A stretch of DNA of 64,000 nt from an uncultured Clostridia bacterium (lineage in GTDB: Bacteria > Bacillota > Clostridia > TANB77 > CAG-508), in contig CANPZF010000004.1 of assembly GCA_947589015.1 (NCBI GenBank), forward strand, positions 8,726-72,725, in the 5' to 3' direction. The translations under genes were made by a program, and so were the position numbers. Below the pieces are notes generated by a model, which saw only the letters and a list, made by a program, of their open reading frames with translations, searched no databases and was not told the origin of the DNA. Shown here one piece after another: positions 10,172-44,396 of the stretch. The first letter of the stretch is position 1. Every line of letters begins with the position of its first letter.

Positions 10172-13100
10172 TTAAATCTTTTCTATTTTTTTTTCGTTTT
10201 TATTTCTTTGTTTTTTTACTACTATAACGGCAACACTTAATATTGCTATAATACTAAATATAATTATACTATAATATAATATTTTTCCTGTTTTTATACT
10301 AATTAGCAAATCTGCTGATGATATATCATTTTCTCCATCTGCTCTATTTGCTGGTGTTGAATTTAAATCTTTCAATCCTAATTCATTATAGTCTTCTGCT
10401 ATTTCTGCTGTATTACTAACTCGTCCTGTATTATTTTCTGTCATCGCTTTTGTTACAGTTAATGTTATTTCTTTTGTTTGCCCTGCTGATATTTTTTCAT
10501 TTGCCAACGAAGTATTATATAAACTATTTCCTGATTGATACCAGTCTTTATTCATTTCTGAACTAAATTTGAAGTCTGCTGGTAAATAATCTACTATATT
10601 TTTAGCATATCCTTCTACTTCTCCTACATTGCTAACTTTTATTTTATATTCAACTACAACATTTGTATTTTTTAATAATTTTGCATCTATCTCTACTTTT
10701 GCTAAATTAGTATTTTCATATTCTCTTACTGTTGTTCCTGAAGTGTTTTGAACTATAACTTTACTTATATATTTTTCAAGTTTTAAATCAAAATCTTTTA
10801 ATTTTACAAGTCCTATATTTACACCATCTATATTATCATCTTCTATTTGTATTACATCTGTAGCCGCTACTTCCTTTGTTTCTTTTTCTATTACTAATTG
10901 GTTCTTTATAACATCTGAATTTTCTCTTTCTGTAACATCTTTTGCTTTATATTCTGTTAATCCATATTGTGTTTTGTCATAATCAAATATTAGCATATAC
11001 TTACCTTTTCCTATATTATTTAATAAATATGTTCCTGTATCATCTGTCACTGCTTGCACATTTTTTACTAATTGATTCGTTTCTACATTCAATACACTTA
11101 CTTTTATTCCTTTTAATTTTTCTTCACTTAAATCCTTTTTTCCATTTTCATTTGCATCATACCATGCAACACCTGTTATTGATTTTGTTTGTGTATTTTC
11201 TGGATTTGTTGGATTACTTGGGGTATTTGGATTTGTTGGGTTGCTTGGATTATCCGAATCACTTGGATTATTTTGGTTATTTGGATTACTTGGATTTGTT
11301 GGATTACTTGGATTGCTTGGATTTGTTGGATTACTTGGGGTATTTGGATTTGTTGGGTTGCTTGGATTATCCGAATCACTTGGATTATTTGGGTTATTTG
11401 GATTATTCTGAACACTTGGAGGTGGTACATCATCTGGATTTGTTGGAGCATCTGGATACGTACTATCATCTGGTTCAGGTTCCGCATTTGCCTCTATTAC
11501 ATGTACAATTTTATCTGTTTGCGCAACAGTTTCACTTAAAATTCGTGCTTCTGCTTGATTTTCTATTTGCCTTGGCTCGGTTAATTCCATATTATCTACT
11601 TTAGCTAATATTTTTATGTCAGCTTCTTTATTTCCTTCTAAGTCTATACTTAAATTAATAGAGTTTTTAGTTACATTCTTTTCTTCTCCATCTACAGTTA
11701 TTTTCTGAATAGCTAATTCACTTGGTAATTCATCTATCATTTCTAATGCATATATACTTTCATCTTTATTATTTTTTAGATTAATAGAATATTCTATCAT
11801 ATTTTCTACTTCTATATATTTTTCTTCAACATTAGATGTCATTGTTATATCAACATCATAATTATTTACTACTTGTCTCCATACATTTGAACGATATTCT
11901 TCTTCACCATCTTTTACAACAGAATAAACATCTAAACTAGTTGTACTAATTATATTGCCAATTAATATTGAATAGTATAAAATTTTATTTTCTCCTGCAT
12001 TTAATGAACCTATATTAATTTCTTCACTATATTCTATTTTTTCTTCTTTTGTATTTTCATTCCTTGGTACATCAATATATTTTCCTGTAACTTCATCATC
12101 TCGTATATTTTCATCCTTAATGTCTATATCTTCATAACCAGTAAGAATACTTGCACTTTGCACTTTCATTTGTTCTGGTATAAAAGATTTAACTTTAACA
12201 TCATCTTTCTTGGTTTCTGACATATTTTCTACTATTAAATAATATGAAATTGTTCCTAATGGTTTTATTTCTATTTCTCTATCTGTTACTCTTTTTAAAG
12301 AAACTCGTATATCTCCTCGTTCTGCATTTACAGAAATTTTTTCTGACTCTTTTTTTATATCATTATAAGAAACTTTATAACTATACTCAATTGCTTTGTT
12401 ATCAGCTATGTCTTTTTTTACTCTTACTTCATATTCTGTCTCTACTTTATCTCCAACTTTTAAATCTTGTATTTTAGCTGAATAATTATCCTTCTCTATT
12501 TCCTTATAATAACCTGATCCTGTATATTCATAATATGGTTTAGGTTCTACATATACTGTTCCTTCTGGAATAGGTGCTTCTAATACTCCTTCTTTTATAT
12601 CCTCTGTTCCTACATTTGTTACTGTAAGATGATATTTTATTACTTCACCTGCTCTTACTGTATCTCCATTTTTTAGTTGTGTATTACCTACACTTGCGCT
12701 TACTTCAAGTTTTGCACTTGCTCCTTCTCCTGTTGTCATATTAATAACAGATGATTTTGCTTCAGATTGCATATTACTTATTCCATCTGTAAACTCTACA
12801 TCATAAGCTATATTAGCTCCTTGATTGTAGTCTAATCCTTCTGGAATTTCAGCTTTATAATTTGCTATTACACCTTCTTGATTTTTTAATTCATCTATTG
12901 TTATTAAGTATTTCTTAGCTTTGCTTATATCTTGTATATTCTCTTCCCAACCATTTTCTTCATTTGATAGGTTCGTATTTGCTTTTTCATTCTCTGTATA
13001 ATAAACTTTTACTCCTTCTTTTTCTGGTATTTCTATTCCTCTTGTTAGTTTAATTCCTGCATTATTTTGTGCTCCATCAGTTGGAAAATCTCCAATTACT

Positions 13101-25400: not shown

Positions 25401-25521
25401 CTTTCTTAAACCACCCTTTCTTTTTATTCTTATATTATTATTTACAAAATTTATATTTTTATGCATAATTAAAATAAATTATAATATTGTTTATGAGATA
25501 ATGGAAATGTAGTTTTCTTAC

Positions 25522-25567
25522 AACAAAAAAATGTAGGAAAAACGACATTTTTTTCAAATTCCTACAT
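25522..25567 (-). terminator. rho-independent terminator after the 581-aa gene
   Basis: Stem atgtaggaa (25531-25539) / ttcctacat (25559-25567), followed by a T-run on the minus strand. Confidence 0.6.
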
Positions 25568-25609
25568 TTTATATTATTATAACATTTGCAGCAAAGTCAC
25601 CTCAAAGTG

Positions 25610-27355
25610 CTAAGCACCGACCAACACCGCACGGAACCCAATTTGGTAATCACTATTGCCGTCATGCCAGGTGAAAGAGAACAGGCCGGAATCGGCGCCG
25701 AAGCTCCAAGAGCCACCGCGAAGAAAGAATGGAGCGTCAGCAGAGACAAAGTAAGAGCGGTCGCCGTACCAGGAAGTCGAATCAGGGCTGCTAGTAGAAG
25801 TTTCTGCCATTGCGTTTCCAAATACATCTTTATTGGCTTCATAATTCTTTGCTTGTGTATCTTCTGTTCCATTTTTATATACCATTGTATATTTTGTTCC
25901 TTTTACTGCATTTTTACTATCTGTTAAGCTTGCCCCCCACTTTTTCAAGTTATCATTATTATTTGCCAAGTATGTTGCTGTTCTTTCCCATAATCCTCCA
26001 CTTAAATCATATATTCCATATATTGTTCCTGTTGAGCTTGCTTTTGTTCCTGTTTCTTGTTTCCATGTATATATTCCTTCATCACTAGTTGGTGTATTTT
26101 TTGTTACTTCATTTATTTGGTCTACAATTTCTTTTGTTCCACTTATTACTTTTTCTTTCTCATCTTCATCATTAGTTGTTACTCCTGTCATTGCATATAC
26201 ACTGTTCACTCCTGTTTGTCCGTCACTTGATGTTCTTTTTTGTCCTCCTGCATTTAAACTTACATTATTTATTACTATATTTGTTCCATTTAATCCATAT
26301 TTACTTTTACTTAAATATGCTACTGCTCCCCACTCACTATCTTTCATCATATGACTATCTGCTGTTGATGATAATCCATATGGATTTCCTGCTGATGATA
26401 TTTCTTTTGCTAATAAAAATGCATCATTATGATTTATATAATTCATCGAATATGTTGTTCCCATAAACACTGGATATTTTATCTTTGTTTCTGTTGAACC
26501 ATATTCTCCATCTAGCCAGTTTCTCGCCGTGTCACTCTCGTCCTTTTGCGCTTTATTTTCTGCTGCTCCTACCCACACTGTAGGTTGACTATATTTTAAA
26601 TTCGTTGCTTTTACTGCTGCTTTATTATTTCCTTGTGCATATCCTGCTTCAAACTTTGCTACCCATATTCCTCTTAATTCTTTATCCCAGCCACCATTTT
26701 TATATGGTGTTGTTAGTCCTGATTCATTTGTAAATGCTGGATGAACATAATAATCTTTGCTTGTATCTACATCATTTTCTGTTACTCTTTTTGCTGAGTG
26801 TTCTTCTCCTTTTTCATCAAAGTATTTATCTGTTGTTCCTATTAAGAATTTTACATCTACTGTTTTACTTTCACTATTTATTTTATATGCAAATCTTGGT
26901 ATCCACACCCACATGCTTCCATCTTCTGTTTCTACATTTGCCCATTTCTTTTCATCATAATTATACCAACCATCTTCTAAAAATCCTTCATCTCCACTTC
27001 TTAATGTCTTTCCTTTTTCAGTCTCTGTTGGATCTTTAAACATTATTTTTTTCATTCCTGATAATAGTCTTGGTGAATTTACATATTTTGCTTTTTGTTC
27101 TGGAGTCAATCCTTCCAGATTTTCTCCTTCATAGTCTTCTAATGTACTTAAAATTTCTTCTATATCATCTTGTTCCTTTCTTGATGCTGCTTCTGTTTTT
27201 TCTTTTGCTTCTGACGCTTTAGTTAATATACCATTGTCACCTGTTAATGTTGCTATACTTACTCCTGCTAGAATCAACAATACTATTATCGTGATAACTA
27301 ATGCTATTAGTGTTATACCTTTTTCTTGATTTTTGTCTTTTAAAAATATTTTCAT
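25610..27355 (-). CDS. prepilin-like N-terminal leader/TM protein with C-terminal FGE-sulfatase (C-type-lectin fold)-like domain
   Basis: N-terminus KGITLIALVITIIVLLILAGVSIATLTGDNGIL (pilin-type hydrophobic helix). C-terminus ...FFLRGGSWSFGADSGLFSFTWHDGNSDYQIGFRAVLVGA (RGGSW...GFR signature). Confidence 0.7.
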   Translation of the reverse strand: MKIFLKDKNQEKGITLIALVITIIVLLILAGVSIATLTGDNGILTKASEAKEKTEAASRKEQDDIEEILSTLEDYEGENLEGLTPEQKAKYVNSPRLLSGMKKIMFKDPTETEKGKTLRSGDEGFLEDGWYNYDEKKWANVETEDGSMWVWIPRFAYKINSESKTVDVKFLIGTTDKYFDEKGEEHSAKRVTENDVDTSKDYYVHPAFTNESGLTTPYKNGGWDKELRGIWVAKFEAGYAQGNNKAAVKATNLKYSQPTVWVGAAENKAQKDESDTARNWLDGEYGSTETKIKYPVFMGTTYSMNYINHNDAFLLAKEISSAGNPYGLSSTADSHMMKDSEWGAVAYLSKSKYGLNGTNIVINNVSLNAGGQKRTSSDGQTGVNSVYAMTGVTTNDEDEKEKVISGTKEIVDQINEVTKNTPTSDEGIYTWKQETGTKASSTGTIYGIYDLSGGLWERTATYLANNNDNLKKWGASLTDSKNAVKGTKYTMVYKNGTEDTQAKNYEANKDVFGNAMAETSTSSPDSTSWYGDRSYFVSADAPFFLRGGSWSFGADSGLFSFTWHDGNSDYQIGFRAVLVGA

Positions 27356-27669: not shown

Positions 27670-27999
27670 ATGAATAAAAACAACATTAATAAACACATCG
27701 GAAAAATATGTCAAGAATATAGAACGAAAAATAACTTAACACAAAATCAAGTAGCTGAACTAACAGGACTAGAACCAAGACATATAAGTCAAATAGAAAG
27801 AGGTTTATCAAAAGGAAGTATTGATACACTACTAAAATTGTGCAATGCATATAAAATTACTCCTGATATAATTTTATATGATCTATTAGACGAAGATATT
27901 AAAAATTCTGTTTCAATATATAACGAAAAATTCAAAAAATTAAGTAGAAGAGATAAAGAAAGCATTTTATATTTTATAGATTATTTTTTGTCAAAATAA
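27670..27999 (+). CDS. XRE-family HTH transcriptional regulator
   Basis: LTQNQVAELTGLEPRHISQIERG helix-turn-helix. Divergent from the pilin/FGE gene. Confidence 0.85.
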   Translation: MNKNNINKHIGKICQEYRTKNNLTQNQVAELTGLEPRHISQIERGLSKGSIDTLLKLCNAYKITPDIILYDLLDEDIKNSVSIYNEKFKKLSRRDKESILYFIDYFLSK

Positions 28000-28045: not shown

Positions 28046-28321
28046 TTAAATTTTTTTTAAGTCTTCTCCATACTTCACTCCTAATGAATAACTAAGTGCA
28101 AAATAATATTCTTCTGTCTTATAAAATAATTCTATTATCTCATCAAATTGTTCCTTTTGCCTTCCTGTTAAATTCCTTTCTAGTTCATCTATTACTTCAT
28201 AAAGTCTAGTATATTGGTTATTAAAATCTATATTGTTCTTTAATATAGATATTTTCTCTTCAACTAATTCACTAATAAATTTATAAATTCCACTTTCAAA
28301 TATCTCCATTACACAATCCAT
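28046..28321 (-). CDS. hypothetical protein (91 aa, helical)
   Basis: ORF only. No motif recognised. Confidence 0.4.
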   Translation of the reverse strand: MDCVMEIFESGIYKFISELVEEKISILKNNIDFNNQYTRLYEVIDELERNLTGRQKEQFDEIIELFYKTEEYYFALSYSLGVKYGEDLKKI

Positions 28322-33340: not shown

Positions 33341-34138
33341 CTATTCTTCATATGCTTTTTTATATTTTATATAGAAAATAATTGTTACCGTTACTCCTAC
33401 AAAAATAGCTAATACTAAAAAACTAACATTTCCTGCATATGGCAATTTTGTAGTAGCTTGATTTCCTGAGTTTGCTGGTTTTTGAGTACTTCCACTAGTG
33501 CTACTTCCATTTCCATTGCTACTATTGCCATTTCCATTTGAACCGCTTGGGTTATTCGGTTGCTCTGGTTGACTTGGATTATTTGGATTGTCTGGGTTGT
33601 CTGGACTATCTGGATTATCTGGGTTATCTGGTTCTGTATCGCCTTCATTTGCCACTTTAATAGTAAAAGGTACGTCATCAATAGTAAATTGCGTATTATC
33701 ATCTGCTGAAAATTCATTTTTACTTAGAGTCACCGTATATTCTCCTACTTTTGTTTCTTGCTTTGCAGTTAACACTATACTTGCTATAGTTTGATCTGCT
33801 ATAGTTCCTTCCAAGTTAGATGTTGTAAAAGTAATTGAGTTTTCTATTTTTGTACAATTCCACTCGTCTTCAGTTTTCACTGAAAAATTCTTTTCAAATA
33901 TATCTTCATCATATTCTAATATAGCATTATATATAACTATTCCATTTCCTGCTTGTATATTAGATACATAAACTTCTAATTCAATTTGTTCTCCAGGTTT
34001 TATCGTTTCTTTATTTGGAATCATTTTTAATTCACATGTATAGTCACTTTCGGCAAAAACTTTTGTGTTTACTCCGACAATAACCATTAATATTAGTATC
34101 ATTAATACACTCATTCTTTGTACAATACATTTAATCAT
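33341..34138 (-). CDS. surface protein: signal peptide, cohesin-like domain, Pro/Asn linker, LPxxG-like sorting signal
   Basis: Signal peptide ending VFAESD. Linker DNPDNPDSPDNPDNPNNPSQPEQPNNPS. C-terminus KLPYAGNVSFLVLAIFVGVTVTIIFYIKYKK (motif, TM segment, basic tail). Confidence 0.65.
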   Translation of the reverse strand: MIKCIVQRMSVLMILILMVIVGVNTKVFAESDYTCELKMIPNKETIKPGEQIELEVYVSNIQAGNGIVIYNAILEYDEDIFEKNFSVKTEDEWNCTKIENSITFTTSNLEGTIADQTIASIVLTAKQETKVGEYTVTLSKNEFSADDNTQFTIDDVPFTIKVANEGDTEPDNPDNPDSPDNPDNPNNPSQPEQPNNPSGSNGNGNSSNGNGSSTSGSTQKPANSGNQATTKLPYAGNVSFLVLAIFVGVTVTIIFYIKYKKAYEE

Positions 34139-37453: not shown

Positions 37454-37610
37454 TGTTACAAGATAATGTTTTAAAAATTAGCTATGAAAATGCTTATATA
37501 TTAATATTTGCAGTCAAGACCCGGATTGTTACACCCCAGATATGTTTTGACAAAATATATTAATATATAAGCATTTTCATAGCTAATTTTTAAAACATTA
37601 TCTTGTAACA
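37454..37610. repeat. long palindromic element, copy A (54-nt perfect arms, 49-nt conserved loop)
   Basis: Left arm 37454-37507 is the exact reverse complement of right arm 37557-37610. Termini are TGTTACAAG...CTTGTAACA. The loop is about 85% identical to copy B. Confidence 0.85.
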
Positions 37611-43997: not shown

Positions 43998-44396
43998 TTT
44001 TTATTCCTCCCTTTCCTATTTGCTTAAATCATATATAGAAATTAAAAATTACTTTTTTTATTTGTTTGGTTCTTTTTGAAACTTTTTATAGATTATATGT
44101 TTATTTCACAAATTTTGCAACTAATTTTACTTAAATCATTCAACCCTTTCATTGTTTATTCGCCATTTCAGAATTCTACAGTTTCACGCTTTCGCATTGT
44201 GGCTCGTTTGTTCTCTTGTCTACACTTACTTTTGATATTACTGCTTCAAAACCAAGACTCGATACTGGCTGTTGGTTAGACTTTACCAGGTAGAATTTCC
44301 TCCTACTATATGGTATTAGCTTAAATCACCAAAATGTTCCATTTTGGCTATAAAATTTTGAAAGAGTTCTCACTTCGTTCGAACTCTTTCAAAATT

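Follow-up and report, generated by a model that had tools for sequence, protein, structure and literature searches.

Why does the last part of an AT-rich gene turn abruptly into a GC-rich, adenine-poor sequence, and is that part still being rewritten? The question is raised by the gene for a 581-aa protein in a stretch of 64,000 nt from an uncultured Clostridia bacterium (GenBank assembly GCA_947589015.1, contig CANPZF010000004.1, positions 8,726 to 72,725), which is called the window here. An original prediction, made from the window sequence, held that the 3' end of this gene resembles the variable region (VR) of a diversity-generating retroelement (DGR), i.e., a segment that bears the mark of adenine-specific mutagenesis. 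The reading that we favor, albeit with some reserve, is that positions 25602-25761 are a VR in a paralog of the DGR's adjacent target, located away from the DGR; that the template repeat (TR) from which this VR was written was an earlier or a different version; and that the VR has probably not been retrohomed since. The features concerned are the following:

25610..27355, minus strand: target-type gene, 581 aa; an open reading frame (ORF) with a pilin-like N-terminal hydrophobic segment, a large conserved body and a hypervariable C-terminus of ~50 residues
25602..25761, minus strand: variable-region homolog, recognized by an ungapped alignment to the 157-160 nt TR of a DGR on another contig
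25591..25639, minus strand: invariant 3' block, similar to an initiation of mutagenic homing (IMH) site; 49/49 identical to the active VR of a paralog (L002:11765-11813)
25521..25570, minus strand: hairpin with T-run, recognized by folding

The compositional peculiarity of the tail was found as predicted. On the minus strand, the final 165 coding nt contain exactly the 19 A that had been counted before (11.5%), with 32.7% T and 56% GC, as against 47% A, 21% T and ~32% GC in the rest of the gene; hence, the rest is A-rich, and T is not depleted in the tail. The break is abrupt and lies ~190 nt before the stop codon. At third codon positions, the GC fraction (GC3) is 0.60 in the last 55 codons vs. 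0.15 in the rest of the gene, and the A fraction (A3) is 0.04 vs. 0.59, so that the tail departs from the A-ending codons usual in this gene. The motifs RGGSW and GFRAVLVGA are written in precisely the codons that had been quoted, and the GC-rich tract continues past the stop codon, for ~20 nt rather than the ~25 nt estimated earlier. The mean GC content of the window is ~27%, and more than 48% GC per 150 nt is reached at only two sites in the 64 kb, i.e., at ~25571-25840 and at 44401-44580, the latter being the 3' end of another pilin-like gene. When the last 55 residues were re-coded with the codon usage of the window (20,000 draws), 42.3 ± 2.8 A (minimum 31) and 63.4 ± 2.4 G+C (maximum 74) were expected, against 19 and 92 observed, and the tail ranks as the most A-poor among 15,091 coding windows of 165 nt. 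Thus, neither chance nor amino-acid composition accounts for the depletion of adenine.

Where could such a tail have come from? In agreement with the original prediction, the window holds no reverse transcriptase (RT) gene, Avd gene or TR: the ORF check revealed no RT ORF bearing a YxDD motif, an adenine-tolerant, ungapped scan of both strands with both VR-like tails of the window gave nothing above background, and a repeat search was empty. An Rfam scan of the window returned only the signal recognition particle RNA and a tRNA.

A cassette was found on another contig. On contig L002 of the European Nucleotide Archive (ENA), the gene for P0007, a paralog with 70% identity to the 581-aa protein, is followed by a direct repeat of 157-160 nt of its own 3' end and then, on the opposite strand, by genes for an RT and Avd. 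The VR of P0007 differs from the adjacent TR at 17 of 33 adenines and at none of the 124 other bases. The RT matches RVT_1 (E 1.5e-16), contains the motifs IGNYTSQ and YMDD, and is 34% identical to Brt of phage BPP-1 over 90% of its length (E 5e-40). The Avd protein matches NCBIfam DivGenRetAVD with 86.9 bits (cutoff 80) and Pfam bAvd with E 4e-23, and a small MutS-domain-I (MSL) gene accompanies the cassette. By these matches, the P0007 locus holds a complete DGR, with a TR, a Brt-like RT, Avd, a MutS-like gene and an adjacent target. The composition of the TR, with 48% GC and 21% A in a genome of 27% GC, gives it a foreign make-up. A common layout, i.e., a DUF6809 gene, a helix-turn-helix (HTH) gene, the target with its VR, the TR, and convergent genes for RT, Avd and MSL, is found in the sister lineages represented by contigs L008/L009, L011 and L019. 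The cassette region is core chromosomal, with sporulation, cell-wall and replication genes, and no phage genes were seen in the loci.

The cassette shows signs of use. Contig L016, from another strain of the window's species, differs from L002 at only four positions in 8857 nt, three of which are TR-adenine sites of the adjacent VR. Because the differences between these strains lie mainly at such sites, the DGR has been recently active in the window's species. In L008 and L009, which come from two samples, the TR and RT are identical, and the VRs differ at several TR-adenine sites.

Several further observations concern the architecture of the cassette. In all four assemblies of the window species (L002:13822-14245, and also L014, L015 and L016), a frameshift divides the MSL gene into ORFs of 64 and 81 aa; the gene is intact (139-140 aa) in the sister lineages L008, L011 and L019. 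In L002:11643-13829, and likewise in L008, L011 and L019, the TR lies on the target strand, ~136 nt past the VR, and faces the RT, Avd and MSL genes. Therefore, the template RNA would have to be transcribed convergently to the RT gene; possibly, it is generated by read-through of the target mRNA. Conservation between lineages extends over ~70 nt at the 3' side of the TR (…ATCTCAGAGGG…TCGAG…), with a central AATATTTAAGGATATT in L002, L008 and L011; this stretch is probably the priming and structural part of the DGR RNA. Finally, at L014:11105-11700 in assembly ERZ27249433, the end of the target gene consists of the TR sequence without mutations, including bases from upstream of the TR, and 296 nt between VR and TR are gone; this arrangement is either a collapse of the repeat by the assembler or a real recombination between VR and TR.

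How does the tail of the window gene relate to this TR? In a BLAST comparison, the tract aligned to L002:11943-12098 with 80% identity, without gaps over 157 nt. It is changed at 17 of the 33 TR adenines and at 18 of the 124 non-adenines (Fisher p = 2.4e-5). The 50 codons at the very 3' end of the ORF fall within the tract, which ends in the IMH-like block; this block runs from the GFRAVLVGA codons over the stop codon TAG (25610-25612) to 19 nt beyond it (20 nt in the comparison of the window with contig L007). VR and TR part after a shared GCACTT, where the VR reads TGAGGTGAC and the TR reads CGATACAC; the TR departs here from both VRs, which is the usual relation between an IMH and the corresponding site in the TR (IMH*). 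The prediction of a DGR variable region was thus borne out by the 157-nt alignment to the TR of a complete DGR and by the enrichment of the differences at adenines, and the alignment supports the identification of the tract as a DGR-type VR that carries the mark of adenine-specific mutagenesis. The composition of the tail is explained as well, since it is a copy of a TR with 48% GC and 21% A in which half of the adenines are substituted. Most of the compositional shift is therefore due to the tail being a copy of the TR, and mutagenesis only halved the A content again, to 11.5%. One check proposed with the original prediction failed: it called for a TR that matches the tract except at A positions, and the only TR found also differs from it at the 18 non-adenine sites. 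The tract belongs to the DGR system by descent; with these 18 differences, it does not qualify as a current VR in the strict sense.

The same pattern is visible at the level of the protein family. The 581-aa protein has more than 8000 homologs, mostly in metagenome-assembled genomes (MAGs) named 'Clostridia bacterium', and several of them can share one long contig. Their C-termini have a fixed scaffold, SW..D.S.F....PFS.RGG..W.G..AGLF.F.R..G.S.Y..GFR, and the positions between the scaffold residues are mostly taken by Y, S, N, D, G, H, C, F, A or T, i.e., the residues expected from a change of AAC to NNC. At the AAx codons of the TR, the entropy in the family is ~3 bits, and it is mostly far lower at A-free codons.

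Do the cassette and the window belong to one genome? An identical RT protein and TR were found in four ENA samples and on one NCBI contig. In assembly ERZ27249236, contig L001 is 99.994% identical to the window and has a coverage of 5.28, and the coverage of the DGR contig is 5.25. In ERZ27060014, L013 is 99.89% identical to the window with a coverage of 5.07, the DGR contig L002 has a coverage of 4.80, and two further paralog contigs are covered 5.2-6.2 times. In ERZ27249426, contig L006, which encodes the paralog P0004, has a coverage of 5.04 and the DGR contig L016 one of 5.27. From this co-occurrence and the matching coverage, it is very likely that the window genome carries the DGR cassette on another contig. 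The search for a DGR RT proposed in the original prediction was thus successful, with the difference that the RT is on another contig and that its membership of the same genome is very likely rather than established. P0004, P0006 and P0007, relatives with 68-82% identity that were traced to samples, are most likely paralogs within one species or genome; their interpretation as orthologs in other species was dropped, as they were found in window-type samples at equal coverage. The window species is absent among the representatives in GTDB, and a protein-guided scan of the GTDB genomes yielded three distant, truncated loci only.

Is the tract still a target of this DGR? In relatives, the RNA of the TR is reverse-transcribed by the Brt-like RT together with Avd, the template adenines are copied as random bases, and the resulting cDNA takes the place of the 3' part of the gene as far as the invariant IMH-like block; presumably, the window copy was once written in the same way. 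According to the reading that we favor, this happened from an older or different TR version, after which the copy would have been left alone as a 'fossil' VR that evolves as ordinary sequence. Since non-adenine differences, at least the 3'-proximal ones, would be erased by one round of retrohoming from the known TR, and yet 18 remain, the nearest of them 38 nt short of the point where the homology ends, the tract is probably decoupled from the cassette. In a curated collection of 372 DGRs, non-adenine mismatches number at most 11 (PMC5758913). Seven of the 18 mismatches carry the base of the TRs of sister lineages, and some are located where those TRs have an adenine.

The surroundings of the tract differ from those of the cassette-adjacent VRs. 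An element CCCTTTATTCGGCA (CCCTTTATTC(G/A)GCA) is conserved downstream of the latter in L002, L008/L009 and L011 and is present in the near-identical form CCCTTTTTATCGGCA in L019; in L002, a small GC hairpin also follows the cassette-adjacent VR. Downstream of the window tract, neither the CCCTTTATTCGGCA element nor the small GC hairpin is found, and the similarity ends exactly after ...GACTTTGC. The paralog on L007 has an identical truncated junction. A hairpin had been predicted to follow the gene and is indeed present at 25521-25570, with a T-run; probably, it is an ordinary intrinsic terminator and not a GC hairpin of the DGR type or another DGR signal. Nothing that corresponds to the sequence beyond the 49-nt block, with this hairpin, follows the cassette-adjacent VR, and the alignment of L007, a paralog locus without a cassette, extends to only ~60 nt past its stop codon and does not reach most of the hairpin.

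Among the paralogs, the VR copies show a gradient. The number of non-adenine mismatches to the TR and the GC3 of the last 55 codons are 0 and 0.62 for the cassette-adjacent VR of P0007, 18 and 0.60 for the VR of the window gene, 28 and 0.47 for that of P0006 (L007), and 45 and 0.31 for that of P0004 (L006).

A number of observations weigh against the favored reading. With its GC3 of 0.60, the tract is as 'fresh' as active VRs, and several of its synonymous differences from the TR are changes from T to C, contrary to the AT bias of the genome; together, these properties are more easily explained by recent writing from another TR than by long decay. The perfect conservation of the 49-nt block suggests that a homing signal is still under constraint. 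The linkage to the DGR contig is drawn from co-occurrence and coverage and not from a joined assembly. Furthermore, the tract is identical in three assemblies, i.e., the window, L001 and L013, but this has little power as evidence for a lack of variation, because the assemblies are near-clonal (1-7 single-nucleotide polymorphisms) and the cassette-adjacent VR is likewise unchanged in the sole comparable near-clonal pair.

It is therefore possible, if distinctly less likely, that the tract is a currently active remote target, served either in trans by the known cassette or by a second DGR with a TR that matches all non-adenine sites. That non-phage DGRs can have remote targets is established (PMC5758913). 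The 49-nt IMH-like block, which reaches 20 nt beyond the stop codon, is identical to that of an active VR, and the tract equals active VRs in GC-richness and A-poverty. The synonymous T-to-C changes and the seven mismatches in common with the TRs of other lineages would point to a distinct, GC-rich template, and the second VR-like gene in the window, for which no template is known, makes further DGRs in the genome plausible. These arguments are opposed by the persistence of the 18 mismatches, the missing downstream element, and the identity of the VR in the three assemblies, for what it is worth. Moreover, no matching TR was found in the genome, metagenome and viral collections that were scanned (GTDB genomes, IMG/VR and JGI metagenomes): patterns of 30 and 23 nt from the 3' ends of VR and TR gave zero matches, as did an IUPAC pattern specific to the tract or its exact cognate TR. 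The closest other RTs that were checked (P0122, P0123 and P0126; 78-80% identical) belong to other samples or to another MAG. They were rejected as evidence of a second DGR in the same genome, being orthologs, with P0126 at a syntenic locus.

A more tentative idea, to which we give a smaller chance still, is that of a repertoire with two tiers. Retrohoming would write the cassette-adjacent 'master' copy and perhaps any copy with the 49-nt IMH block, and duplication and gene conversion would spread the VR ends and freeze them. If so, the 0, 18, 28 and 45 mismatches would mark the steps of an archive in which earlier VR states are preserved, and the paralogs, as records of earlier TR versions, could be used to reconstruct the evolution of the TR. 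Two observations on the target gene can be mentioned here in their own right. Relative to the paralogs, the gene has a mosaic C-terminal third. All seven differences between the window and L013 are located in one patch of 38 nt, 27105-27142, in the 5' part of the gene; they switch four residues to the state of the paralogs, a pattern that resembles gene conversion among these copies.

It is very improbable that the tract is unrelated to DGRs, i.e., that it is an island resulting from horizontal transfer or recombination, or that the amino acids of the scaffold demand GC-rich codons. The mosaic C-terminal third and the patches between strains that resemble gene conversion could be cited in favor of an island. 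However, the amino acids predict 42 ± 3 A where 19 are observed, and an FGE-domain protein of 830 aa encoded at a related locus (L008:227-2719) writes the scaffold RGGSF...GFRVVLY in AT-rich codons. This explanation is already contradicted by the alignment to a genuine TR and by the concentration of the differences at its adenines. That the gene is an assembly chimera, with a VR or TR from elsewhere joined to it, is hardly credible, since, even though one assembly of a paralog locus (L014) shows a VR/TR collapse, the gene, its tail and its flanks are alike in the window and two independent ENA assemblies and the paralog on L007 has the identical junction after the VR.

We return to the preferred reading of the tract, a VR that was written from another TR version and then left alone, and to the gene that carries it. 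Upstream, this gene has two neighbors that belong to the target-gene module:

27670..27999, plus strand: HTH_3 regulator gene, divergent from the target gene (Pfam HTH_3, E 1e-12)
28046..28321, minus strand: small DUF6809-like gene (weak Pfam DUF6809 match, E 0.004), the second conserved neighbor of the module

The HTH_3 gene is a conserved neighbor of the target gene in every DGR locus examined and occupies the same position in L002, L008, L009, L011, L014 and L019. DUF6809 genes are found at the equivalent place in L002, L008, L014 and L019.

What kind of protein would be diversified? The N-terminus of the 581-aa protein (KGITLIALVITIIVLLILAGV) resembles the class III signal of type IV pilins with its hydrophobic segment. 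The N_methyl profile of Pfam matches this protein with 15.5 bits (E 0.013), below the cutoff of 21.2, and weakly matches 71 of 76 family members. The pilin residue Glu5, which is generally conserved, is replaced (G|ITLIA). A search of PDB sequences with the family profile gave marginal matches to the N-termini of geopilin and MshA (E 0.08-0.4) and no match beyond the pilin segment, and the conserved body has no match in Pfam. The assignment of the C-terminus to the C-type lectin (CLec)/formylglycine-generating enzyme (FGE) fold is based on motifs (IYGIYDLSGGLWERT; RGGSW...GFR) and could not be confirmed: no FGE or CLec domain was matched in Pfam in any of the 76 family members, and NCBIfam gave no usable answer. 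AlphaFold models of the full-length protein and of the C-terminal 230 aa were unreliable in the C-terminal region, with confidence scores (pLDDT) of 54 and 42. By analogy with known DGR targets, the most likely function of the protein is that of a surface adhesin with a pilin-type anchor, in a filament or in the membrane, the C-terminal binding face of which would have been diversified.

The second GC-rich site of the window belongs to a more distant relative of this gene:

44397..45743, minus strand: second pilin-like gene, 448 aa, with a GC-raised, VR-like 3' end (~44397-44560); Pfam FGE-sulfatase, E 2.8e-5

The N-terminus of its product is 54% identical to that of the 581-aa protein over 70 aa. 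This protein does pass the Pfam threshold for FGE-sulfatase (24.3 bits vs. a cutoff of 23.3), and its family profile matches SUMF2 (1y4j, E 6e-7) and the DGR variable protein TvpA of Treponema (2y3c, E 6e-4). When the two families were aligned to each other with hhalign, only the IYDLSGGLWERT motif was matched (E 2e-4, probability 47%). The C-termini of the 448-aa family consist of a fixed scaffold with variable positions, and a paralog of the gene in the same samples has matching flanks around the variable stretch. The 3' end is rich in NNC codons and looks like the VR of a different DGR; its nucleotide sequence is unrelated to that of the first VR. No template for this tail was found in the scan of the window, and a 21-mer from it had zero matches in the public collections named above. 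A perfect hairpin of 19 bp starts at the stop codon of the gene (44351-44399; fold z = -8.9).

Some other features of the window deserve mention. The recR gene (53901-54524) is flanked by long, near-perfect palindromes, at 53715-53898 and 54528-54677, which are built from the repeated unit AAAGGTTGCCAGTGGGGACGTTCTTTTTTGGCAAC and have arms of up to 96 nt with 86-98% complementarity. A palindrome with arms of 67 nt (93% complementary) at 37454-37610 recurs with 88-89% identity at 55125-55197 and in L006:5548-5696, where it is located between the genes for enolase and DXP-synthase; it appears to be a dispersed element, and it has no match in Rfam. Long arrays of a 9-nt unit (of the type GGATTTGTT/GGATTACTT, plus strand) are present at 11139-11480 within a gene for a surface protein of 1695 aa (DUF11, SdrD_B), and a shorter, related array is found at 33531-33637 in the gene at 33341-34138, the L001 ortholog of which has a Cohesin domain. 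These arrays encode linker repeats of three residues. Finally, an ORF of 275 aa for a transposase of the IS110 family (DEDD) is located at 47143-47970.

The significance of the locus is partly methodological. The survey by Roux et al. could not detect remote targets (PMC8144416), and standard pipelines miss targets like the one described here, because they need a VR beside the RT or a near-perfect match to the TR. Such targets can be recognized from composition alone, when the tail of a gene in an AT-rich genome is poor in A and rich in GC. Through the locus, a very large and unannotated protein family, the pilin-like surface proteins of Clostridia-like MAGs, is also linked to diversification by DGRs, and VR copies at graded distances from a living template could show what is needed for target recognition and how fast abandoned targets decay.

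Compared to known systems, this is an Avd- and MSL-containing DGR with non-adjacent, paralogous targets, a kind that is known from Treponema and Legionella-like DGRs (PMC5758913), with two twists, i.e., an apparent archive of abandoned VRs and the very large, unannotated family of pilin-like targets. The DGR of phage BPP-1 (mtd VR/avd/TR/brt, with an IMH) has in common with it the homologous RT with an IGxxxSQ motif, the presence of Avd, a TR that is ~90% identical to the adjacent VR with differences at adenines only, the position of the VR at the 3' end of the target ORF, and the divergence of VR and TR just past a common GC-rich 3' block (IMH vs. IMH*). In contrast to the phage-borne BPP-1 element, the Clostridia element is core chromosomal, its cassette contains an extra MutS-like gene, the TR and target are convergent with the RT and Avd genes, and the target is pilin-like without a detectable match to Mtd or CLec. 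The window copy, in addition, has no adjacent cassette and is mismatched to the TR at non-adenines.

The DGR of Treponema denticola (TvpA family) similarly combines one cassette with several scattered, paralogous cell-surface targets (PMC5758913), and the 448-aa gene of the window matches TvpA and FGE by profile. However, the remote VRs in Treponema differ from the TR essentially at adenines only, whereas the window VR has 18 other differences, and the accessory gene is HRDC in Treponema and MSL here (PMC5758913). DGRs with MSL ('Architecture D', e.g., in Legionella pneumophila) share the small MutS-domain-I gene adjoining avd and the RT gene. MSL was found in 16 DGRs by Wu et al., always together with avd (PMC5758913). 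The differences are that a frameshift interrupts MSL in each of the four assemblies of the window species and that the target proteins belong to a different family.

Among pilus-related systems, the DGRs of Bacteroides that act on tip adhesins of type V pili (bioRxiv 10.1101/2024.11.15.621889) also diversify the distal part of a pilus-type surface protein and probably share an origin in gut metagenomes, judging by the names of the related 'Clostridia bacterium' MAGs. The protein described here belongs to an unrelated family and has an N-terminus like that of type IV pilins (class III signal type), and its host is a sporulating, low-GC, Clostridia-like bacterium. The modular type IV pilins, such as PilB of Streptococcus sanguinis (PMC8179133), offer an analogy for a pilin-like N-terminus with a large grafted module that might be displayed on a filament. 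In the 581-aa protein, the N_methyl match is below the Pfam cutoff and Glu5 is replaced, and its diversified C-terminus has no counterpart in PilB.

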